Of a stretch of 14,972 nt of DNA, positions 694 to 14,387 are shown one piece after another. The notes beneath the pieces were generated by a model. The model was not told where the DNA came from, did not search any database, and saw nothing but the letters and a program-made list of their open reading frames with translations. The translations under genes were made by a program, and so were the position numbers. The stretch is from a virus. Location of the stretch: UHGV virus genome UHGV-1739818; one strand, 5' to 3'. How positions within the stretch are numbered: the stretch's first letter is position 1; each line of letters begins with the position of its first letter.

Positions 694-2268
694 ATGGAAT
701 TGAACGACAAACAAATTAAGGATCTGGTGGCGCGACGCCACCCGGAATACGAAAAGAAAAAAGAACATTGGGACTTCCTCGCCAGCACTTACGCTGGCGG
801 GCGTGGTTGGTTTACAGACAATATCTTTCGTTACTTTAAAGAGGGAGATCAGGAGTTTAAGGAGCGAGTTGAACGTGCTTATCGCTTCAACCACACTCGT
901 GAGGTGGTAAACCTCATCAACAAATATCTCTTTAAAGAAGACATTCATAGAAATATCGAAGAGGCACCAGAGCAGATCCGCAATTTCTGGAAACGTGCGA
1001 CTCGCCAGAATGCCTCTATTGACTCATTTATGGCCGCTATTGATTTGCAGTCGTCTATTTACGGTCGCATATGGGTTGTTGTCGATAGCACGATGAGTGG
1101 TGATGTTGAGTCAGTAGCTGACGAGAAAAAGAAAGATGCTCGCGCCTACGCCTACTGGATTTCACCTCAGCAAATGCTGGATGTGGCATGGGACGACGAC
1201 GGGAATATGTTGTGGGCGTTAATTGTGGAAGTCGCTCGTGATGACGCAGATCCTTTTACTTCTACAGGTCAGGAATACCAACGTTATCGTCTGTGGACAC
1301 AAAACGAGTGGTATCTGTTCCGTGAGGAAGTGAAGAAGGGCGCTGGTGGAGCAGGTCGCCGTCAGGCAAAAGTTATTTTAGAGGATAGCGGTGAGCATAA
1401 TCTCGGCGTAGTTCCTGTGTTTCCTGTTGATTGTATTGGAGAAAGTGAATCACCGTATTTCAGCCCATCGTTGATCGATGATATCGCTTATCTTGATCGT
1501 GCGGTTGCAAACTATCTGTCAAACCTTGATGCCATTATTCAGGATCAGACATTTAGCCAGTTGGCTATACCGGTACAGTCGCTTTTACCTGGTGATGAAA
1601 ACCACACTAAAGTGCTTGAAATGGGCACAAAGCGAGTCTTCACCTACGATTCTGAAGGTGGAAACCAGCCGTTTTATCTGTCACCAGACCCGAAACAAGC
1701 TCAGATGATCATCACTACGATTAAGACGGTGATTAACGAAATCTACCATTCAGTTGGTGTAGCTGGTGAGCGAACGAAGCAGGACAACGCACAGGGAATC
1801 GATAATTCATCTGGTGCCGCAAAAATGTATGACTTCCAGCGTGTAAATAGCTTGCTTGTCACAAAAGCAGAGCGTCTGGAAAGGGCTGAACGCCAAATCA
1901 TGCTACTGGTTGCGAAATGGATGGGGGTAGATCTGGACGAAGACCACTCTTTAATTGCATATCCAGAAAGTTTCGATATTCGTGGCCTTACTGATGAATT
2001 TTCTGTTGCCGAGAAACTGTCATTACTTCAGGCACCGGACTCTGTACGTCGTCACCAGATGGAAATGCTTATTGAGAAGATTTTCCCGAACATTACTGAG
2101 GCGATGAAAAAGGAATTTGATAAAGATCTCTTGAATTTTCCTCCAAAAAATGATCTAAATACCCTTGAAAATAAGTCGGTACTTACTTATGATCGTGGTG
2201 CAGCCCAAGAAAGCGGGCAAGATCAACCCCGAGGGAATGGGGACTCATCTACTCAAGAGAACGAGTGA
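694..2268 (+). CDS. Portal protein
   Basis: 524-aa ORF directly after the terminase gene with AAGG 8 nt upstream of the ATG; size and position are typical of portals, and the C-terminal tail is acidic. Family not verified. Confidence 0.65.
   Translation: MELNDKQIKDLVARRHPEYEKKKEHWDFLASTYAGGRGWFTDNIFRYFKEGDQEFKERVERAYRFNHTREVVNLINKYLFKEDIHRNIEEAPEQIRNFWKRATRQNASIDSFMAAIDLQSSIYGRIWVVVDSTMSGDVESVADEKKKDARAYAYWISPQQMLDVAWDDDGNMLWALIVEVARDDADPFTSTGQEYQRYRLWTQNEWYLFREEVKKGAGGAGRRQAKVILEDSGEHNLGVVPVFPVDCIGESESPYFSPSLIDDIAYLDRAVANYLSNLDAIIQDQTFSQLAIPVQSLLPGDENHTKVLEMGTKRVFTYDSEGGNQPFYLSPDPKQAQMIITTIKTVINEIYHSVGVAGERTKQDNAQGIDNSSGAAKMYDFQRVNSLLVTKAERLERAERQIMLLVAKWMGVDLDEDHSLIAYPESFDIRGLTDEFSVAEKLSLLQAPDSVRRHQMEMLIEKIFPNITEAMKKEFDKDLLNFPPKNDLNTLENKSVLTYDRGAAQESGQDQPRGNGDSSTQENE
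2172..2185. repeat. Gapped dyad TAAGT-cggt-ACTTA embedded in the 3' end of the portal coding sequence
   Basis: Read directly from the sequence; same gapped dyad as at 7629-7642. Lies about 105 nt upstream of the scaffold start codon. Confidence 0.5.
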
Positions 2269-2289: not shown

Positions 2290-3177
2290 ATGAATCTGTG
2301 GCAAATGCTTTTGGCCCGTCGTGGTCTGATGGATGTCGCTGAAGCGCATGAGCGTGGAGGCGCTGGCGGTGTAGCTGCTGATAATGAGCAGAGTACACAA
2401 GATCCTGACAAACAGGGTGAACAAAAAGAGCAGCCGAAGGGCGATGACGAATACGCTGGCATGACTCAGGAAGAGTTACTGGCCGAACTTCGTAAAACCA
2501 AGAAAGCTGGTGCTGAACTGCTGAAGGAGAACATGAAGCGCAAAGAGAAAGAGCGCACATTGGCCGATCAGCTTGCTCAGTACGGTGATATCGATCCGGC
2601 TCGTGCTCGCCAGCTTTTAGAAGCTGAACAGGCCGCAGAAAACGCACGTCGTGAGGCGGAGCAAGCTGAACTGGAGCGTCGTGGTGAGTTCGATGCTGTT
2701 AAAAAACAGATGATCGAAGCACACCAGGCAGAGCTGGCACAGCGTGACGAACGTTATGCAGCACTGGAAAGTGAAAACGCATCACTGAAATCTCAATTAG
2801 TCGAGATGACCGTGGGCGCTTCGTTCAGTAACTCTCTCTTCCTACGTGACAAAGTTCTGATGACCCCGGCAAAAGCCCGCGTGATCTACGGTTCTCATTT
2901 TGAAGTGGGTGAAGACGGTAGCGTAGTGGGTTATGACAAACCGGCAGGTCACAAAGAACGAGCTGTTCTGGTTGACGGTGAAGGTAAGCCGTTGCCGTTT
3001 GAATCCGCGATTGAACGCATTGTGCGGGCAGATCCGGAAGCTGACGCATTGATGCGTAGCGAAGCCAAGCAGGGTGTAGGCTCACATTCCAAATCGACCT
3101 ACACAATATCCCAACCGAAGAACAAGTCGACTATGGATAAGTTGGCCTCCGGTCTGGGGAAAATTGGACTTAAGTAA
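2290..3177 (+). CDS. Head scaffolding protein (putative)
   Basis: 295-aa ORF between portal and major capsid genes; highly charged, Ala/Glu/Arg/Gln-rich central segment predicted to be coiled coil (…AEQAAENARREAEQAELERRGEF…); SD AAAAGGA 6 nt upstream of the ATG. No protease motifs seen. Confidence 0.55.
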   Translation: MNLWQMLLARRGLMDVAEAHERGGAGGVAADNEQSTQDPDKQGEQKEQPKGDDEYAGMTQEELLAELRKTKKAGAELLKENMKRKEKERTLADQLAQYGDIDPARARQLLEAEQAAENARREAEQAELERRGEFDAVKKQMIEAHQAELAQRDERYAALESENASLKSQLVEMTVGASFSNSLFLRDKVLMTPAKARVIYGSHFEVGEDGSVVGYDKPAGHKERAVLVDGEGKPLPFESAIERIVRADPEADALMRSEAKQGVGSHSKSTYTISQPKNKSTMDKLASGLGKIGLK

Positions 3178-3202: not shown

Positions 3203-4078
3203 ATGCCATTACTGCGTGAAGAAGCTGAAAAGCTGTCTAACAACGAACTTGAACAGGGTGTGATCGAAACTATCATCGATCGCGATGACCTGTTTGCCAT
3301 CCTGCCTTTTATGAAAATTAATTCAAAGGCATATCTGTACAACCGTGAAAAAACGCTGAGTGAAGCTACCTTCATCGACGTTAACGACACCATCCCTGAA
3401 GGTGCAGCAACCTTCGAAGAATGCGTTGCGAAACTGCGTATTCTGGCTGGTGACGTAGACGTTGATAAATTCCTGGCGACCACTATGGCCGACACCAACA
3501 ACCAGTTGGCTATTCAGGTTCGTCAGAAAGTTAAAGGTCTGGCTCGTGCGTTCCGTCGCAACCTGATTTTGGGTGACTCCAGCTCCAACAACAAGGCGTT
3601 TGACGGCATTCCACGCCTGATGCACGCAGATCAGAAGATCGATATCGCCGGTGCATCTATGACTTTCTCTATGTTCGACGAACTGGTCGATGCGGTGAAA
3701 GATCTTGGTGCTGACTGCATCATGATGCGTTCAGAGCACCTGCGTGCTTACCGTGCGCTGCTGCGTACAGTAAACGTAGGTCCGTCTGAAATCATGATGG
3801 AGAACTTCGGTCGTCCGATGCTGTGTCATAACGGCGTTCCGTTCATCATCAACGACTTCATCCCGACCGATGCTGGCAAAGCAAGCATCTACTGCCTGCA
3901 TCTGTCAGAAGAGAACGGCGTTACTGGTCTGTATGGCGGCGACAACGCAGGTATCGTTGTTGAAAACATTGGTACTGTACAGAACAAAGACGCAGTACGT
4001 ACCCGTGTGAAGTGGTACTGCTCTCTGGCGAATAAGCACGATAAGGCTATCGCTGCACTGACCAATGTAAAAATTTAA
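3203..4078 (+). CDS. Major capsid protein (putative HK97-fold, no delta domain)
   Basis: 291-aa ORF after the scaffold gene with SD AAAGGGAA; strongly biased codon usage suggesting high expression; followed by an intrinsic terminator. Length fits a capsid protein that relies on a separate scaffold. Confidence 0.7.
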   Translation: MPLLREEAEKLSNNELEQGVIETIIDRDDLFAILPFMKINSKAYLYNREKTLSEATFIDVNDTIPEGAATFEECVAKLRILAGDVDVDKFLATTMADTNNQLAIQVRQKVKGLARAFRRNLILGDSSSNNKAFDGIPRLMHADQKIDIAGASMTFSMFDELVDAVKDLGADCIMMRSEHLRAYRALLRTVNVGPSEIMMENFGRPMLCHNGVPFIINDFIPTDAGKASIYCLHLSEENGVTGLYGGDNAGIVVENIGTVQNKDAVRTRVKWYCSLANKHDKAIAALTNVKI

Positions 4079-4087
4079 TCAGTGTGG

Positions 4088-4105
4088 TAGATAGGTAGTT
4101 ATCTA
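4088..4105. repeat. Inverted repeat TAGATA-N6-TATCTA between capsid stop and terminator
   Basis: tagata (4088-4093) is the reverse complement of tatcta (4100-4105). A related TTATCTA element occurs at 676-682 in the terminase-portal junction. Confidence 0.35.
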
Positions 4106-4114
4106 TGTTAAAGG

Positions 4115-4138
4115 GTGGGCTATACGCCCACTTTTTTT
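4115..4138 (+). terminator. Rho-independent terminator downstream of the major capsid gene
   Basis: GTGGGC (4115-4120), loop TATAC, GCCCAC (4126-4131), followed by T7 (4132-4138). Confidence 0.7.
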
Positions 4139-4151
4139 GGAGGAGCGAGAA

Positions 4152-6463: not shown

Positions 6464-6770
6464 ATGAATATTTCGTGGCAAACAGAAATTGCGATCTACC
6501 GCTTTGGCGCAAAGAACGTTTACGGCGAGGCGCAATTACAATTCGTCAGGAAGACGAATGTCGGCGTGGTTAAGTTCGAACAGAGTAATGAGAAATCGTC
6601 AGTTCGTGCTGATAGATGCTGTGTTAGTTGTCCCTTTAGAAGCGGCTGTACAACTTGATGATGTGCTGATCCTTGAAGGTCAAAAATTAAAGGTGTCCAG
6701 TGTTCATCGCCGTTGGGGGCTACGAGGAAGACCTGGGCATCTTGAAGTGGGGGCGAATATATGGGTCTGA
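6464..6770 (+). CDS. Head-tail adaptor (head closure) protein, apparently interrupted by a +1 frame change near 6596-6602
   Basis: Frame 2 from ATG 6464 gives MNISWQTEIAIYRFGAKNVYGEAQLQFVRKTNVGVVKFEQSNEKS and then implausible Cys-rich text to the stop at 6658. Frame 0 is implausible upstream but protein-like from about 6600 (QFVLIDAVLVVPLEAAVQLDDVLILEGQKLKVSSVHRRWGLRGRPGHLEVGANIWV) to the stop at 6770. The conceptual fusion is about 100 aa with features typical of small adaptor proteins. Confidence 0.45.
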
Positions 6771-7235: not shown

Positions 7236-7619
7236 GTGTTTATCGAAGCGTTTGCAAGTTTGATGCAGAAGGCAAAGATTGGCACGGTCGGGACTGACAT
7301 TTTCTGTCACTACTTGCCTGCCAATGTGAAATCTGGCGTCCTGCTTATTAACCCAAATACCGGTATCAGCATCGATCATGAGCTACAGGGCTTTTACCAC
7401 GAATCATTCACAATAATTGTGCGTGGTTCGTCAATTACTACGACGGTTGAGAAAGCCAATAAAATCATTGAGATGTTTCCAGTAGAGGAAACGGAATCTG
7501 GTGGTGTTTATTTTCGACTGGTACGACCGATGGCGATGCCAATCATTTATCCCAAAAATGATGGAGCATTAATAGAAGCAGGCATTCCTGTTGAATTTGC
7601 TGGCTATTTATTGAATTAA
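7236..7619 (+). CDS. Tail terminator / tail completion protein (putative, lambda gpU position)
   Basis: Start placed at GTG 7236, which overlaps the upstream stop (TAATGTG) and has GAGAGG 5 nt upstream. The track start at 7113 would overlap the previous gene by about 120 nt in another frame. Confidence 0.45.
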   Translation: MFIEAFASLMQKAKIGTVGTDIFCHYLPANVKSGVLLINPNTGISIDHELQGFYHESFTIIVRGSSITTTVEKANKIIEMFPVEETESGGVYFRLVRPMAMPIIYPKNDGALIEAGIPVEFAGYLLN

Positions 7620-7640
7620 GTCAATCGGTAAGTATATACT
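7611..7640 (+). promoter_or_regulatory. Candidate sigma70-like promoter upstream of the major tail gene
   Basis: TTGAAT (7611-7616), then TATATA (7633-7638, spacer 16) or TATACT (7635-7640, spacer 18). The -10 region lies inside the 16-bp palindrome. Confidence 0.3.
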
Positions 7641-7643
7641 TAC
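7628..7643. repeat. Perfect 16-bp palindrome GTAAGTATATACTTAC (TAAGT-N4-ACTTA core)
   Basis: Read directly; 50 nt upstream of the major tail start codon. Candidate operator for a dimeric DNA-binding protein. Confidence 0.6.
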
Positions 7644-7693
7644 TGTTAGCGCAATGAATGCGTAGAATTAACGGAAAAAGGAGTTTTCCATCA

Positions 7694-8440
7694 ATGTCTA
7701 ATACCCATGTAAAAAACATCAAACTTGGTGCCTGTAAGGTGTCGTTTGGTGGTGTGGATTTGGGTTACACCAAAGGTGGTGTTCAGGTTGAAGTAGCCAC
7801 TGAAACGCTGAAAGTCACTGTCGACCAGCACGGCCAGACAATTATGTCAGAGCTGGTGCAGGGTCGTAACATTACCATTACTGCGCCGCTGGCCGAGTCT
7901 GTGTTGAAAAATATGGTCGATCTGATGCCGGGGTCTACTCTGAACGAAGACGACAACGCTGTGACCATCACTTCCGCACAGGGTGTCAACCTGATCGACG
8001 TAGCCAAAGAGCTGGTTCTGACTCCGCAGGACACTACCGACTACGTTCTGACCATTCCGAAAGCTGCGACCGCAGGTAACTTCACCATGACTTACCAGTC
8101 TGATGATGTTCGTGTGTTCTCTGTTCAGTTCAGCGCATACCCTGATGACGAAGGCGTTCTGGGAAGAATGAGCGGCCCTAAACCGGTAAAAACCGTGTCG
8201 ATCAAACCGGAATCTCCAACTGTAAAAGCAGGGGAGACTGTGCAACTGACAGCCGAAATCACTCCAGCTGATGCCGCAGACAAAACCGGTGTTTGGGAAT
8301 CCGAAGACCAGGAAAAGGCCACGGTAGATCAAACGGGTCTGGTACGTGGTGTGGCGCAGGGTTCTACAAATATCTCCTTCACCAGCAATAGCGGTGGTAA
8401 GAAGGCTACTAAGTCAGTAACGATTAACTCCGCAGGTTAA
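7694..8440 (+). CDS. Major tail (tube) protein with C-terminal Big_2 Ig-like domain
   Basis: ATG 7694 with AAGGAG 10 nt upstream (the track start at 7658 lacks an SD). C-terminal about 90 aa is a Big_2-type domain (…VQLTAEITPADAADKTGVWESEDQEKATVDQTGLVRGVAQGSTNISFT…), as in lambda gpV. Located before the G/GT pair. Confidence 0.7.
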   Translation: MSNTHVKNIKLGACKVSFGGVDLGYTKGGVQVEVATETLKVTVDQHGQTIMSELVQGRNITITAPLAESVLKNMVDLMPGSTLNEDDNAVTITSAQGVNLIDVAKELVLTPQDTTDYVLTIPKAATAGNFTMTYQSDDVRVFSVQFSAYPDDEGVLGRMSGPKPVKTVSIKPESPTVKAGETVQLTAEITPADAADKTGVWESEDQEKATVDQTGLVRGVAQGSTNISFTSNSGGKKATKSVTINSAG

Positions 8441-8813: not shown

Positions 8814-9163
8814 TTTCCCGCGATGAATCCGGGACAAGGACCGTCTCAATAGATCTCGGATTCTATTTCAGTCGTGTAGTTGCTCACTACGCCGTGTCGC
8901 CATTAGAGCTACTGAACGTTCCTCTCACGATGTTCTGGATGCTCAGTCGCAATATAGACCGTCTGCGTGCGGAAGAGGATGTCCGCAACTTACAAGTCGC
9001 TCGTGCGTCCCAGGCGGATGGCGAGGCTGTGAAGGCGTTCATGGAGGGTTTGCAACTCAGGATTGGAAGACCAGTCGTAACAGATAAAGTCTACGATCCA
9101 AGCCAGGATAAGGCAGACCCTGACGCCAAAGAGCAACTGATGCAAATATTTGGCAGAGGATGA
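8777..9163 (+). CDS. T-domain reading frame of a G-T tail assembly chaperone fusion, expressed by -1 programmed frameshift from 8496..8813
   Basis: The -1 frame is open from 8777 (after TGA at 8774-8776) to 9163 and overlaps the last 37 nt of the G-like ORF. There is no SD before its first internal start (GTG 8894). Its stop overlaps the tape measure start region. Confidence 0.6.
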   Translation, partial: RKRKSGWRRGKVISRDESGTRTVSIDLGFYFSRVVAHYAVSPLELLNVPLTMFWMLSRNIDRLRAEEDVRNLQVARASQADGEAVKAFMEGLQLRIGRPVVTDKVYDPSQDKADPDAKEQLMQIFGRG

Positions 9164-9170
9164 CAAGGGA

Positions 9171-10856
9171 ATGTCACAAAACGTAGAGTTTATCCTGTCG
9201 CTGGAAGACAAACAGTTTACAGCGTCAATCGATCGTGCGGGGAAACTGCTTACTCGATTTGGTGAGCAGGTAACAAAGCCTGCTCAAAAAATCCAAACCT
9301 TTGAACGCTCTTTGGGTTCGGTCGCCCGTATCATTGGCGTTCTGGAAAGCAAGCTCGATTCTACGGCAGATAAACTACAGGATGTAGCTGCCGGTTTTGA
9401 GCTTGCTTCAGATGCTACGCGTAAAATGCGTGGCAACATCACCAGCCTCAATTCTGGTCTTAAAGCCCTGATTGAGCGCGTCGATACGACAACTTCTTCA
9501 GTAGATAAACTCACCGCGTCATTACGTAAAGTGCAATCAGAGCTAAATGATTTCTCTGATTGGGCGACCTATGCAAGCAAAAGCGCAAGCCGCTTTGGTA
9601 CGGAGGTCAAAGAAGCCTCTGCGTCCGTGAGTGGCATGAATACGCGCCTTAATACCACGACGAAGCGACTCAGTAATTGGGGTGTCACAACGAGTCAGGC
9701 TGCCGAGGGACTGAAAAAGGTTCGTGAGCAGATGGACGAAGTTATCGGACGTCAGCAACTGATTAGCAAGCCGGTACGCGTTCGTACATCTGGAAGTGGC
9801 GATGGTGGTAGCGGGCGGCGTAGCGGCGCTTCTGGCCATAGCGGTAAAAGTAACGAAGGAGGTATGTTCTCTGGCCTTCGTGGCAACATTTTCCTGCTTG
9901 GCGAGATCGGAGATGCAGCCAGAACGGTTACTGACATCATGTTTGGGTGGCAGAAGCCTATTGTTGAAGCTGCGGCCGAAATGGAACGTATGCGGGTGAT
10001 GCTTCGAGGGTTGAATAAGGAGAAGTCCAACCCGGGCCAGGCTGCCGCTGATGATATGAAGTACATCGTAGACATGGCGCAAAATGCGCCGTTCGCGATG
10101 CAGGCGTTAACAGATTCCTTCGTGAAGTTTCGTTCTGCTGGCTTAGATCCAACCGATGGTTCTCTGAAGGCGCTGGTGGACTCCGTTGCTCGTTTTGGTG
10201 GTGATAGTGAGCTGTTGAAACGTGCGGCTGTGGCCGTTCAGCAGATGTCCGGTAAGGGCGTTGTGTCAATGGAAGAGCTACGTCAGCAATTAGGTGAAGC
10301 CGTTCCTAACGCGATGCAGGCAATGGCAGACGCCGCAGGCATCACTATGGGGGAACTGACTAAAGCCGTTGCCAGCGGTACGGTTGAGGCAAAACAGGCG
10401 TTGTCTCTGATGTTTGTTGGTCTGCGTGCGGAGAATGAGAACGCAGCGAAAGACATGATGCAAACCTACACAGGTGCGCTGGCGCAACTTCAGACGTCAT
10501 TCACGTTATTTGCTGATCGGGTTGGTCAGGCCGGATATCTGGATTCTCTATCGAAGGGGATGAAAGAACTGGCTTCAATCATGAATAGCGCCGAAGGGAT
10601 TTCGTTTGCCAATTCTTTAGGCTCGGGGTTAACGACGGCAATCGATGGGTTGCGTCAGCTTGCTCAATGGTTAGCAAAGAACCAAGAGCTGGTAATTAAT
10701 CTCGGTAAGGTCGTGGCCGCGATGGTTGCGTTCAAACTGATGCGAGCAGGGATCATGGGGGTAGTTGGCGCAGGCAGCCAGATGGTTAGCACCTTTGCCA
10801 CGATGGCGACCGCCATACAGACTCCATTTAACCTCGGCGCTACAGCAGTAAGATGA
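9171..10856 (+). CDS. Tail tape measure protein, N-terminal/major segment
   Basis: ATG 9171 with GAGGA 10 nt upstream (the track start at 9150 is a TTG without SD). Coiled-coil N-terminus, Gly/Ser-rich linker, and a region typical of tape-measure core domains (…NAPFAMQALTDSFVKFRSAGLDPTDG…); hydrophobic C-terminal segment. Confidence 0.8.
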   Translation: MSQNVEFILSLEDKQFTASIDRAGKLLTRFGEQVTKPAQKIQTFERSLGSVARIIGVLESKLDSTADKLQDVAAGFELASDATRKMRGNITSLNSGLKALIERVDTTTSSVDKLTASLRKVQSELNDFSDWATYASKSASRFGTEVKEASASVSGMNTRLNTTTKRLSNWGVTTSQAAEGLKKVREQMDEVIGRQQLISKPVRVRTSGSGDGGSGRRSGASGHSGKSNEGGMFSGLRGNIFLLGEIGDAARTVTDIMFGWQKPIVEAAAEMERMRVMLRGLNKEKSNPGQAAADDMKYIVDMAQNAPFAMQALTDSFVKFRSAGLDPTDGSLKALVDSVARFGGDSELLKRAAVAVQQMSGKGVVSMEELRQQLGEAVPNAMQAMADAAGITMGELTKAVASGTVEAKQALSLMFVGLRAENENAAKDMMQTYTGALAQLQTSFTLFADRVGQAGYLDSLSKGMKELASIMNSAEGISFANSLGSGLTTAIDGLRQLAQWLAKNQELVINLGKVVAAMVAFKLMRAGIMGVVGAGSQMVSTFATMATAIQTPFNLGATAVR

Positions 10857-11860
10857 GCTTCTCCAGCCTATCTCAGTCCATTTTGAAAGATATCACCAAT
10901 ATGGTCGTGAAGTCGCAAATCACGCTGCCTCTAATGAACATGTTGGGGATGGGAACCACCGCAGCTGGTAGTTCACAGAGTGGCAATTTGCTCACTGGAG
11001 TTGCTTCCGCCGTTGCCAATCAAGGGGTACGAATGGGCAACACTGTTAACGGCGACAAGTCGGTGGGAGAAGCCACGAAGGAGACGTCCAGTTCGGTAAC
11101 TGGATTGGGGCAAACAACACAGCAGACCACCAGCGCAATTGGCACTGCAACAAATGCGATTGGTAGCTGGGTATCAGGGCTATTTGATAGCACCGAAGCC
11201 AAAGATGCTGAAACAAAAGCAGTGAAGGACTCCATCTTCTCGATGCAGAACCTCAGCTCTGTTACCGGCGCTCTGTCTGCCGCGTTTGCAATGCTTGGAG
11301 CTAATGCTTCCGGCTCTGGTAATAAGTGGTTGAATTTCGGCGCGACAGTTGCATCTGGTTTGGTTTCAGTATGGGCTGGTGGTGGATTCGATGGATTGAT
11401 GTCCGGTTCTTCTGGCTCAACTTCCGGGTTCAACAATCTGACCAGTTCTGCTGCCGATGGCACGAATGGTATTCCTGCAATTCCGAAGTTTGCAAATGGT
11501 GGCATATTCGGAAAAGACGGCGTGATCCCGCTCCGGGCATACCAGAAAGGCGGTATCGCCAACTCACCTCAATTGGCGTTGTTTGGGGAAGGCGATATGA
11601 ATGAGGCGTATGTTCCATTGCCTGATGGTCGAACAATCCCTGTAACGCTCAGTACCGATGGTATGAGTGGAGGAGGAAATGTTCTTTCTCCGGTATCAAT
11701 TGAGATCAACGTCCATAGTGACGGTAGCACAACTGAATCCGGCGATACAGAAAGCATATGGAACAATGCCGCTCAACGGATGAAAGCAATCGCGCTTGAG
11801 ACTATCGCTCAAGAGAAACGCCCTGGCGGATCACTCAACCCAAACACTCAACGTAACTAA
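10853..11860 (+). CDS. Tape measure protein, C-terminal segment, encoded as a separate ORF in the -1 frame
   Basis: Starts at ATG 10853 overlapping the upstream stop (ATGA). Gly/Ser/Thr-rich with a FANGGIFGKDGVIPL…GEGDMNEAYVPLPDGRTIPV block resembling conserved tape-measure C-terminal motifs. Confidence 0.65.
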   Translation: MSFSSLSQSILKDITNMVVKSQITLPLMNMLGMGTTAAGSSQSGNLLTGVASAVANQGVRMGNTVNGDKSVGEATKETSSSVTGLGQTTQQTTSAIGTATNAIGSWVSGLFDSTEAKDAETKAVKDSIFSMQNLSSVTGALSAAFAMLGANASGSGNKWLNFGATVASGLVSVWAGGGFDGLMSGSSGSTSGFNNLTSSAADGTNGIPAIPKFANGGIFGKDGVIPLRAYQKGGIANSPQLALFGEGDMNEAYVPLPDGRTIPVTLSTDGMSGGGNVLSPVSIEINVHSDGSTTESGDTESIWNNAAQRMKAIALETIAQEKRPGGSLNPNTQRN

Positions 11861-11902: not shown

Positions 11903-12238
11903 ATGGAAAGACAAACGTTTAATTGGTATCCAGATTACGAATCTGAAAAAAGCGTAAAACCGAATGTAACGGTACTTAATTTTGGTGATGACTACGAGCA
12001 GCGACAGGCTCAAGGTCTTAATCGTATTAAAGAAGAATGGTCGTTAACCTTTACCAGATCATACAACGAAATTAATGCAATCGATGACTTCCTGACTGAG
12101 CGAGCAGGCGTTGAGTCGTTCTATTGGGTTAATCCAAGAGGAAAACGGATTGTAGTTGTATGTGACAGTCATACGGTCAAGCGATATCAGGGGTACTGTG
12201 TCTTAACAGCTACATTCAGACAAGTATTTGAGGCTTAA
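11903..12238 (+). CDS. Minor tail protein, lambda gpM homologue
   Basis: 111 aa; pattern F.W…V.V..FGD.Y.QR…GLN……F…FL.E..G…F.W.NP…V.C……F.QV matches lambda gpM as I recall it; position immediately after the tape measure. Confidence 0.8.
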   Translation: MERQTFNWYPDYESEKSVKPNVTVLNFGDDYEQRQAQGLNRIKEEWSLTFTRSYNEINAIDDFLTERAGVESFYWVNPRGKRIVVVCDSHTVKRYQGYCVLTATFRQVFEA

Positions 12239-12275
12239 GTATCTGGATAAGTAAGTACTAATTTACTATCATTGT

Positions 12276-12298
12276 GGCGCTGACAGGATGTTAGCGCC
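12276..12298 (+). other. Hairpin in the M-L intergenic spacer
   Basis: GGCGCT (12276-12281), 11-nt loop, AGCGCC (12293-12298), followed by TACTTATTTC. Confidence 0.3.
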
Positions 12299-12320
12299 TA
12301 CTTATTTCAAGGATGAAACA

Positions 12321-13019
12321 ATGGGAATTAAAGCTGATATTCAGAGCTTATCTCCCTCTGCACTCATTGAGTTGTTCGTACTGGATATGTCGAACACAAC
12401 TTCAGGGGGGAAGCTATTCTTCCACGCCGGAACAAACGAACTGATGCAACCGGTCGTCTGGCAAGGAGTGACATACGAGCCGTGGCCAATCAAAGCATCA
12501 GGCTTTGACAAAACTGGCCAGGGAACGTTGCCACGTCCAAAAATTCAGGTATCGAACTTTGCCGGAACTGTCTCTGCGGAAGTTCAGGCAAACGACGATC
12601 TTGTTGGCTGCCGCATTATTCGCAAGATGACGCTGGCTCGCTTCCTCGATGCCGTTAATTTTAAAGACGGCAACCCAACAGCAGATCCAAACCAACATTT
12701 CCCGGATGAAATGTGGTTTATCGAACAGAAAACTCTCGAAACTCATCAGGTTGTCGAGTTTGAATTGTCCAGTGTGTTCGATTTGATGGGGGTGCAACTG
12801 CCGTATCGTCAGATCATTAAAAACACCTGCCCGTGGAAATACCGAGGGCCAGAATGCGGCTATACCGGTCCATATTTCGACAAAAATAACCAGCAGACGT
12901 CTATGTCTGGTGCTGATTACTGCACAAAACGTTATGACGCCTGTAATGCGCGTCGGAATTATTTTGCCAACGGAGTGATCCATTTTGGCGGGTTTATTGG
13001 AGCTACGCGATATGGGTAA
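12321..13019 (+). CDS. Minor tail protein, lambda gpL homologue (tail tip, Fe-S cysteine motif)
   Basis: ATG 12321 with AAGGA 7 nt upstream (the track start at 12288 adds 11 poorly supported residues). Blocks VVWQGVTYEPWPIKASGFDKTGQGTLPRPKIQVSNF, RFLDAVNF.DGNP.ADPNQ and CPWKYRGPECGYTGP…C…C match lambda gpL as I recall it. Confidence 0.85.
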   Translation: MGIKADIQSLSPSALIELFVLDMSNTTSGGKLFFHAGTNELMQPVVWQGVTYEPWPIKASGFDKTGQGTLPRPKIQVSNFAGTVSAEVQANDDLVGCRIIRKMTLARFLDAVNFKDGNPTADPNQHFPDEMWFIEQKTLETHQVVEFELSSVFDLMGVQLPYRQIIKNTCPWKYRGPECGYTGPYFDKNNQQTSMSGADYCTKRYDACNARRNYFANGVIHFGGFIGATRYG

Positions 13020-13809
13020 TAAAGCAATCCCTGAGCTTGGCTCTGATGTTATGCAGCAAATCTATCTCTGCGCCATAAATCGCTACCCTAATGAAGCGTG
13101 TGGCTTTCTGGTGAGAACTAATGGCGACAAATATCGCTTTATGGAAGCGCGAAATGTTTCGGAGAACCCGCAGAACACTTTTGTAATGCACGTTGACGAC
13201 ATTATGGCGGCGGAGGATGCAGGTGACGTAATCGCAATCTGGCATTCACATACTGATGAATCAGCAGAAGCATCTGATGCCGATCGTGCAGGCTGTGAAG
13301 CGACGGAAGTTCCGTGGATGATTCTGGCTATTCGCAAGAATGTTGAGGGAGATGCCCCTTTCCATTTTAGCGAGATGAATGTGATCACACCTGATGGTTT
13401 CGAAATGCCATACCTGGGTAGACCGTATGTATTTGGCGTATTCGATTGCTGGATGTTGTGTCGGGACTATTTGAAGCGTGAGTTTAACGTCGAGCTTAAC
13501 CCGAACGCACACCTGCATATTCCATCGTGGTACACCGGCGATAACGACATTCTCGACCAGAACTACCGAAACGAGGGATTGGTACGGCTTGCACCTGGAA
13601 CAGAGCCTCAACGTGGGGACGTCTTCTTTATTCAATACGGAAAAATGCCTGACCACTGTGCGGTTTATATCGGCGATGGAATGATTCTTCATCACCAGAT
13701 CGACCGCCTTAGTTGTCGTGCTTATTACGGCGGGATGTATCAGAAACATACGACGCATCACTTGCGTCACAGAGACTTGCTCAAGGGAGATGAGACGTGT
13801 CTGAGTTAG
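13012..13809 (+). CDS. Tail assembly protein, lambda gpK homologue (MPN/JAMM plus NlpC/P60 domains)
   Basis: ATG 13012 overlaps the gpL-like stop, GGAG 9 nt upstream. N-terminal YPNEACGFLV and an intact JAMM motif HSHTDESAEASDAD (H-x-H-x7-S-x2-D, 13243-13284); C-terminal FDCWM Cys plus downstream His typical of NlpC/P60. Confidence 0.85.
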   Translation: MGNKAIPELGSDVMQQIYLCAINRYPNEACGFLVRTNGDKYRFMEARNVSENPQNTFVMHVDDIMAAEDAGDVIAIWHSHTDESAEASDADRAGCEATEVPWMILAIRKNVEGDAPFHFSEMNVITPDGFEMPYLGRPYVFGVFDCWMLCRDYLKREFNVELNPNAHLHIPSWYTGDNDILDQNYRNEGLVRLAPGTEPQRGDVFFIQYGKMPDHCAVYIGDGMILHHQIDRLSCRAYYGGMYQKHTTHHLRHRDLLKGDETCLS

Positions 13810-14387
13810 TTCATGTGCAGCTTGGCGGCCCTATGGCCAAACATTTTGGCCGCCACTGGCATCTAAAGGTGCGTAATACAAAACAGGCTCTGGATTTAAT
13901 TGAGGCCAACAAGCCTGGGTTTAAAGCATGGATGAAGCGCAATATCAAAACCTATGACAGATACCACATCCAGATCACCAATAAACAGGGCCACAAGTGG
14001 TCTGTGGACGAGAGTGAATATCAGATGATGGGGCAGTCTGACAATATTGCAAAAATCCGCATTACCCCTGTTCCGCGAGGAAGTGGTGGATCTGCTTTTG
14101 GATGGTTTCAGACGGTTGTTGGAGCAGTATTAATGGTTGCCTCGATATGGGTGCCCGCTCTTGCGCCTCTCGGTTTGTCACTGATGATGGGCGGTATAGC
14201 GCAAATCATATCTCCGCAAGCCACTAACGAAAGTGTGAGGCAGGCGGATAACTCGAACTCTTATTACTTTGATGGACCTCAAAACACAACAAACCAGGGG
14301 AACCCTGTACAGCTTATCTATGGCGAGGAAATTTTAGTTGGCTCACAGGTCGTGAGTTCTTCTATCACCATCGACCAGCTTATGTAA
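13797..14387 (+). CDS. Tail assembly protein, lambda gpI homologue
   Basis: GTG start overlapping the gpK-like stop, GGGAG upstream. Central hydrophobic segment plus C-terminal …NSYYFDGPQNTTNQGNPVQLIYGEEILVGSQVVSSSITIDQ resemble lambda gpI; standard position. Confidence 0.8.
   Translation: MSELVHVQLGGPMAKHFGRHWHLKVRNTKQALDLIEANKPGFKAWMKRNIKTYDRYHIQITNKQGHKWSVDESEYQMMGQSDNIAKIRITPVPRGSGGSAFGWFQTVVGAVLMVASIWVPALAPLGLSLMMGGIAQIISPQATNESVRQADNSNSYYFDGPQNTTNQGNPVQLIYGEEILVGSQVVSSSITIDQLM

Follow-up and report, generated by a model that had tools for sequence, protein, structure and literature searches.

A dispersed palindromic motif in SSU5-type phage-plasmids and its conserved copy within the portal gene

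The portal gene in a stretch of the viral genome UHGV-1739818 (14,972 nucleotides, here called the window) contains a short gapped inverted repeat, TAAGT-cggt-ACTTA, whose arms are found again ahead of the tail-tube gene. On the evidence of sequence comparison, both dyads are copies of one conserved and biologically meaningful motif that recurs far beyond chance. The window belongs to an SSU5-type phage-plasmid; megablast aligns it to Escherichia phage Cyrano, the plasmid-prophage carried by E. coli LF82, at 97.6% identity and to Salmonella phage SSU5 at 82%, and Klebsiella relatives match it at about 79% over 58% of its length. The relatives are mosaic, with coverage of 58-100% among family members. 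For the counts given below, the Cyrano genome was assembled.

A repeated palindrome in the window and across the genome

The portal dyad, TAAGTcggtACTTA (TAAGTCGGTACTTA), lies at 2172-2185 within the portal coding sequence, where it falls in codons for N K S V L T Y and ends 105 nt ahead of the scaffold ATG (2290). The other, TAAGTatatACTTA (TAAGTATATACTTA), lies at 7629-7642 in intergenic DNA, ahead of the tail-tube ATG at 7694. Both are where the original prediction had placed them, with identical 5-nt arms and differing 4-nt spacers. That prediction also considered two copies unlikely to arise by chance. The exact pattern is expected 0.02 times per window, a post hoc figure for a pattern chosen after it had been sighted; among simulated 15-kb windows, 17% hold some recurring dyad of the 5-N4-5 type, a share that rises to 85% once spacers may range from 0 to 8. 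Since recurring dyads are so frequent in simulated windows, two copies alone prove little. As an argument, the pair was post hoc and weak by itself; what it was meant to establish is borne out by independent tests, which go far beyond chance.

Counting across whole genomes, as had been proposed, gives strong enrichment rather than chance frequency in both phages. Cyrano has 8 exact dyads where 0.1 would be expected; if one mismatch is tolerated the count is 22, compared with an expectation of 3.0, and 19 of these 22 touch the non-coding 13% of the genome; the corresponding figures for SSU5 are 8 exact against 0.01 and 26 with at most one mismatch against 1.2. The recurrence could in principle be that of a functionless AT-rich dyad, aided by TAA stop codons, and the 17% of simulated windows as well as the frequency of TAAGT beside stop codons would favor this. 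It is opposed by the roughly 80-fold enrichment in Cyrano and the still higher one in SSU5, and by the extreme synonymous constraint at the portal copy and the retention of that site in 70-75 of 78 relatives, both described in the next section. On genome-wide counts, conservation and synonymous constraint, chance recurrence was rejected, and we leave it next to no probability.

In Cyrano, an iterated position weight matrix (PWM) settles on ATArGTAAGTAnnTACTTAyCTAT, an approximately 22-bp palindrome. This matrix finds about 32 sites in that genome, identical on both strands, of which 30 are intergenic, where simulations give 1-4; SSU5 has 27 such sites, at orthologous places. Forward and reverse scans return the same places with similar scores, and the sites are palindromic, with no orientation following transcription. 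Five copies fall within the window, at 664-684, 2171-2191, 4087-4107, 7624-7644 and 12247-12267, and the first, third and last of these had been missed in the original prediction. The core is TARGTA-NN-TACYTA throughout, and usually one or both sides add a half-site 4 bp further out. The variant of the half-site (TAAGT, TAGGT or TATGT) is specific to the lineage.

Nearly all copies are intergenic and lie ahead of rightward lytic genes, at a median of 15.5 nt past the upstream stop codon and 41.5 nt ahead of the next start, with several just 0-13 nt from an ATG or within tight gene junctions. They precede the portal, the head genes that follow the capsid, minor tail L, the tail fiber and the holin, and also the helicase region, UvsY, SSB, ThyX, a methyltransferase, the RNase H region and a ParB-like pair. 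Upstream of leftward genes expressed in the lysogen, such as toxin-antitoxin pairs and the CYRAN_45 repressor, the motif is essentially absent, with one exception at CYRAN_45. The idea that a shared regulator serves genes whose products are needed in high copy number therefore survives in part. Both dyads are indeed copies of one cis-element upstream of the scaffold and tail-tube genes, but the restriction to high-copy genes falls away, as the approximately 30 copies precede genes of every lytic class. Among open-access papers dealing with SSU5, with Cyrano or with the promoters and operators of phage-plasmids, none was found that describes the motif.

Two further sequence features of these genomes may be recorded here. 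Strings of TAAGTA(A) recur just after stop codons, at 669, 2269, 3171 and 12236-12252 of the window (tgaTAAGTAAc, cTTAAGTAAc, TAAGTAAGTAc), and TAAGTAAGTAA halts all three reading frames. A separate and much larger palindrome, CCTGCTTCTGTATATA - AT-rich core - TATATACAGAAGCAGG, has three copies in Cyrano, at L083:31160-31225 (Cyrano 31.2 kb), L084:28085-28140 (78.1 kb) and L085:8340-8379 (the genome end), and is shared by SSU5 at about 33.47 and 78.32 kb.

The portal-internal copy and the other copies in the window

In its extended form the copy within the portal gene (694-2268; phrog_145) is ATAAGTCGGTACTTACTTATG, at 2171-2191, with PWM scores of 21.5 forward and 23.2 reverse. It consists of the inner dyad and a second right half-site, ACTTAT, and because this extra half-site lies 4 bp further out, the copy can also be read as ATAAGT-N8-ACTTAT. 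The dyad is exact in 70 of 78 relatives, and TARGT-N8-ACYTA is present in 75 of the 78. Relatives L064/L065 and L075 have TAGGT...ACCTA at this site, matching their other copies, and in L080, whose scaffold identity is only 56%, TATGTA-N6-TACATA lies about 125 nt ahead of the scaffold gene. The encoded peptide shifts among the relatives, from V to A or S and from K-S-V-L to R-L-S-T or R-Y-V-N, and the half-sites persist; comparison of orthologous sites, the other check that had been suggested, thus finds the dyad retained even where NKSVLTY becomes NKSALTY, NRLSTTY or NRYVNTY.

In a codon-based alignment of 70 distinct portal genes, the 10-codon block at 2164-2193 (+ strand) has a third-position entropy of 0.20, against a gene mean of 0.90, and this is the lowest value among the 515 ten-codon windows of the gene; its amino-acid entropy is above the gene mean. 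The portal copy is evidently under selection at the level of the DNA. It would represent a regulatory element kept within coding sequence at the cost of synonymous and even non-synonymous freedom.

The two ends of this block resemble the hexamers of a promoter. The -35-like hexamer TTGAAA, at 2165-2170 (+ strand), is TTGAAA in 76 of the 78 relatives and TTGATA in 2, and the -10-like hexamer TATGAT, at 2188-2193 (+ strand), is TATGAT in 53, TATCAT in 24 and TATTAT in 1. The -10 varies solely at hexamer position 4, the least important one, though the amino acid shifts among D, H and Y. Together, TTGAAA-17-TATGAT (2165-2193) has 10 of 12 matches to the consensus, which makes it the best sigma-70-like match in the window by consensus scan, and the dyad fills its 17-bp spacer. 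The original prediction noted neither this promoter-like setting nor the longer form of the motif. The same arrangement, TTGAAA-17-TATCAT with the dyad inside, occurs at Cyrano 57451. From the position of the -10, a transcript start is predicted near 2199-2201, and the simplest reading would be an internal unit made up of this putative promoter, the scaffold gene (2290-3177, + strand; phrog_206, head scaffolding), the major capsid gene (3203-4078, + strand; phrog_212, major head) and a terminator. In the window as a whole, sigma-70-like matches are depleted, with 9 found against 16.7 +/- 4.5 in shuffles.

The candidate terminator is a hairpin with a T run, GGGTGGGC-tata-CGCCCAC, at 4113-4136 (+ strand), which is conserved in the relatives, closes the scaffold-capsid unit and adjoins the ribosome-binding site of the next gene. 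Just ahead of it, 9 nt past the major capsid stop, is the fourth copy of the motif, GTAGATAGGTAGTTATCTATG (4087-4107; PWM 17.6 forward, 18.0 reverse), likewise conserved. The order across 4087-4151 is then motif copy, strong terminator hairpin with T run, and ribosome-binding site of the following gene, which would be expressed only via read-through or from transcripts starting within the hairpin.

At the tail-tube site, the dyad is enclosed in a perfect 16-bp palindrome, GTAAGTAT/ATACTTAC, at 7628-7643; it is exact in 56 of 61 relatives, and the flanking intergenic bases vary. Here TTGAAT-18-TATACT (7611-7640, + strand) gives 9 of 12 matches, with its -10 inside the dyad; TTGAAT coincides in part with the final codons of the preceding gene, and its conservation is therefore uninformative. 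A GC hairpin, GCGCA-atgaa-TGCGT (7649-7663), lies between the dyad and the ribosome-binding site and has compensatory change in 3 of its 4 predicted pairs among 13 relatives. The same order of motif, GC hairpin and ribosome-binding site is repeated at 12276-12298 as well as at several sites in Cyrano.

The third copy, ATAGGTAAGTAATTATCTAAG (664-684; PWM 21.6 forward, 24.7 reverse), occupies the 26-nt junction of TerL and portal, the TAG stop of TerL included, and runs up to the ribosome-binding site of portal; a motif copy is found at this junction in all lineages, with differing flanks. The fifth, ATAAGTAAGTACTAATTTACT (12247-12267; PWM 24.1 forward, 23.5 reverse), precedes the gene for minor tail protein L and is followed by TATCAT and a GC hairpin, with an orthologue present in SSU5.

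Repressor operator, activator box and other readings

The reading that we favor, and to which we give about an even chance of being correct, is that the dyad is an operator for a phage-encoded regulator that acts as a repressor or roadblock. The element would be a site on double-stranded DNA, bound by a sequence-specific and probably dimeric regulator at about 30 places across the phage-plasmid genome of about 105 kb. Where a copy overlaps a promoter, the bound regulator would occlude RNA polymerase; where copies are squeezed into gene junctions, elongation or ribosome access would be blocked. Because several copies lie too near an ATG or inside tight junctions, operators or roadblocks are easier to envisage than upstream promoter boxes. 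The portal-internal sigma-70 promoter would direct a transcript from about 2200 over scaffold and major capsid, ending at 4113-4136, and this would lift the dose of scaffold and capsid above that of terminase and portal. The lytic genes would be silent in the plasmid-prophage state, and loss of the regulator at induction would free all units together. The Cyrano genes whose expression exceeds background in LF82 lysogens do not include the structural ones (PMC9928086), so that a near-consensus scaffold promoter would need to be held off. Binding of a protein, firing of the promoter and a negative effect are all things we infer from the DNA.

By analogy, the element appears to be of a known kind, the dispersed regulator-binding motif of temperate phages. 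The C1 operators of P1 and the operators and stoperators of L5 likewise occur in tens of copies through the lytic genes, in promoters and short intergenic spaces, with some touching stop or start codons, as here, and they allow a whole genome to be silenced from one protein, as the sites described here would (P1 record; PMC9283540). The L5 sites are orientation-dependent and bound by a monomer, whereas those here are palindromic, and the hosts and phage lineages of L5 are unrelated to the SSU5-type phages. The portal copy on its own, TTGAAA-17 bp-TATGAT with the dyad between conserved hexamers, is also reminiscent of sigma-70 promoters with an operator in the spacer, in the style of lac, lambda or LexA, with the difference that it sits in coding sequence and is one of a genome-wide set. 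A plasmid counterpart is provided by the OB operators of KorB in the IncP plasmid RK2, a palindrome of about 13-16 bp that occurs some dozen times or more, its distance from promoters varying, and serves global repression. The motif described here is similarly a palindromic multi-copy plasmid site, and one copy (Cyrano 105112) is 16 nt upstream of CYRAN_119, the first of the ParB-like pair. Unlike KorB, however, CYRAN_119 and CYRAN_120 match solely ParB_N (PF02195), with no detectable helix-turn-helix, and nothing ties them to the motif.

Several observations weigh against a repressor. N4, N8 or N12 can separate the 5-mers, and a rigid dimer would not easily accommodate so variable a half-site register. 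P1 C1 and L5 have asymmetric sites (of 17 and 13 bp), in contrast to the palindromes here, which may have an extra half-site phased at 4 bp. Of 34 core sites, only about 10 overlap a sigma-70-like promoter scoring 9 or more of 12, so that many have no obvious promoter to repress. The cognate binder was not found among the candidates scanned, which comprised nine regulators together with the ParB-like and other proteins, compared with PHROGs and Pfam, and CYRAN_117 and CYRAN_123, searched by sequence against the PDB. CYRAN_45, an XRE helix-turn-helix protein that is expressed in LF82 lysogens (PMC9928086), was rejected as the binder: it has no tblastn homologue in SSU5, which keeps all the sites, and its own upstream region has just a weak, differently spaced dyad, the shortened form GGTAAGCACTTACC, about 30 nt before the start. 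Lastly, the letters of the half-sites, AAGT/ACTT, are the same as in the Lpa box of P1, and the center of the portal dyad lies 9.5 nt before the -10 (TAAGTCGGTACTTA-ct-TATGAT), against 9 nt in P1.

These last two likenesses belong to the view that the motif is an activator box of the P1 Lpa kind, in which a dyad centered about 18-22 bp upstream of the start, with a TAnnnT -10, would recruit host RNA polymerase, mostly without a -35; the portal copy would then serve scaffold and capsid as an internal promoter dependent on the activator. We regard this as possible, if somewhat unlikely. P1 has 11 late promoters, and the 9-bp inverted repeat is the Lpa site (PMC10695390); the seven taken from the P1 record (including LPmat, LPpro, LPlyz, LPdar, LPs and LPpac) have the form AAGTKACTT-N4-TAnnnT. 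As with Lpa, a short inverted repeat is found here at many phage-plasmid promoters, and most copies lack a -35 (about 24 of the 34 sites have none that is recognizable); many copies end in TATnnT, and SSU5 has high-quality sites without a homologue of the CYRAN_45 repressor. A suitable protein might even be at hand in the conserved CYRAN_123, of 88 aa and annotated as DNA-binding, whose gene closely precedes terS, where late activators are typically encoded.

The spacing tells a different story. The spacer here is 4 nt rather than 1: AAGT-N1-ACTT occurs just 3-4 times in Cyrano and SSU5, where the commonest spacings of AAGT-Nn-ACTT are n=4 (8-9 copies) and n=8 (6-7), and in the 52.8 kb of P1 that were examined n=1 has 4+1 copies and n=4 does not occur. 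A tblastn search detected no Lpa homologue in Cyrano or SSU5 (best E 0.29 and 0.44), and none of the nine candidate regulators scanned falls in phrog_1704, to which Lpa belongs, although a remote homologue may have escaped detection. Membership in the P1 Lpa late-promoter family was rejected on these two grounds. Across 25 Cyrano sites, no fixed spacing to a -10 and no directionality around the dyad could be seen other than what TA dinucleotides within the motif predict; TAnnnT was present at two offsets, and equally on the mirrored strand. The portal copy, with a -35 matching at 5 of 6 positions and a 17-bp spacing, should need no activator, and copies 0-13 nt from an ATG or in the 26-nt junction leave no room for a leader. 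Finally, the sites number about 30, as compared with the 11 late promoters of P1, and they precede early-type genes, those of replication and nucleotide metabolism, besides late ones. Of the two views, a repressor or roadblock appears the more likely.

The motif might instead be the site of a host transcription factor or nucleoid protein, for instance of the NarL/FixJ/LuxR type, that ties the lytic genes to host physiology; we judge this improbable. In its favor are the lack of a phage-encoded binder among the candidates scanned, the resemblance of the arms GTAAGTA/TACTTAC to NarL-type heptamers (TACYYMT), and the agreement of the 14-mer at 10 of 12 positions with the RcsAB box, TaAGaatatTCctA. 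The arms are nevertheless oriented opposite to those of NarL 7-2-7 sites, the mismatches to the Rcs box fall on its critical GA/TC bases, and the half-site differs between lineages on similar enterobacterial hosts (TAAGT, TAGGT, TATGT), which suggests a co-evolving, phage-encoded factor. An RNA element, with the transcribed palindrome forming a hairpin for processing, stabilization, translational control or antitermination, would fit with the location of all copies on the transcribed strand of rightward operons, some of them adjoining stop codons or ribosome-binding sites and several with GC hairpins or terminators behind them. For the tail-tube copy the folding energy is -7.6 kcal/mol (z = -3.6), and the phage encodes a member of the FljA family (Flag1_repress, PF03614); FljA represses by mRNA binding. 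The arms are conserved in sequence and not by compensation, however, and TAAGT...ACCTA, with an A.C mismatch, is about as common as TAGGT...ACTTA, with a G.U pair. For 25 Cyrano sites, fold stability on the + and - strands compares as 13 vs 10 sites (p=0.44), with three unfolded, and the mean folding energies are -4.0 and -3.6 kcal/mol, respectively. The portal copy itself folds weakly (-4.3 kcal/mol, z = -1.2), no U tract is present, and no Rfam match was found in the window. Because of the arm mismatches and the strand-symmetric folding, the element is better regarded as one of double-stranded DNA than of RNA; the RNA hairpin was rejected on its strand symmetry, types of mismatch, weak folding and lack of an Rfam family, and we consider it very improbable. 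Slightly less probable again is a repeated linker or mobile cassette that promotes modular recombination, comparable to the promoter-stem-loop cassettes of T4-type phages, with regulation secondary. The position of copies at gene and module boundaries, the recurring layout of motif, GC hairpin and ribosome-binding site, and the mosaic family, with its 58-100% coverage between relatives, are what such a linker would lead one to expect, but a repeat of 14-22 bp is short for homologous exchange, and a linker role leaves unexplained the strong purifying selection on the portal copy and its -35 and -10 hexamers.

Candidate proteins, gene context and significance

Among the other proteins considered, the conserved small ones, CYRAN_123, 37, 117 and 62, gave no informative family or structure match. 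By presence and identity profiling, CYRAN_119, 120 and 123 occur in all five loci that cover the region, some loci lack CYRAN_114 and 117 or have them in highly diverged form, and no single candidate stands out. CYRAN_114 (L085:780-1301) is the full-length FljA-family protein (E 1e-80 to Flag1_repress) and also shows a weak Hfq-like match. Its SSU5 counterpart is conserved (78%), those of L065 (54%) and L080 (26%) are diverged, and none was found in L075 or L076. The region of the integrase and XRE-type repressor, CYRAN_44 and CYRAN_45 (L083:41090-42626), is annotated differently in SSU5.

The gene labels of the original prediction for portal, scaffold and tail tube agree with PHROGs (phrog_145, phrog_206 and phrog_1280). 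The window takes in the end of TerL (20-667, from the open reading frame (ORF) list and the Cyrano and SSU5 annotations) and, beyond the genes already described, an Ig-domain head protein from 4152, the tail-tube gene at 7694-8440, whose product is an Ig-domain major-tail-like protein (phrog_1280), and minor tail L from 12288. At 6608-6615, where the ORF for head closure and the 3' end of the head-tail adaptor gene overlap, the window and Cyrano (7971-8002) differ by a 30-bp indel. The tape-measure gene is about 1.9 kb shorter than that of Cyrano, with Cyrano 12245-14132 having no counterpart in the window, and its frame is broken at 10850-10856 into two overlapping ORFs, 9150-10856 and 10853-11860; this could reflect a real deletion or a defective tail gene, or else an assembly artefact.

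SSU5-type phage-plasmids are common in clinical Escherichia, Salmonella and Klebsiella, some with resistance genes such as CTX-M-15, and nothing was found in the open-access literature on how the SSU5-type phages switch between plasmid maintenance and lytic growth. It is conceivable, though as a combined proposal we think it unlikely, that one palindromic box and a small phage protein form a genome-wide switch, in which the box is an operator within sigma-70 promoters and a roadblock or translational block within junctions, and in which its half-sites are kin to those of P1 Lpa, respaced from 1 to 4 nt and recognized by a protein that bears no detectable likeness to Lpa. If such an Lpa-related switch were true, two major families of enterobacterial phage-plasmids would share a diverged cis-code for lytic control. 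A single motif that marks about 30 lytic units would in any case offer an experimental handle, both as bait for the regulator and as a set of sites at which the state of the element might be locked, and it may be used as a signature for annotating promoters and operators throughout the SSU5-type family.

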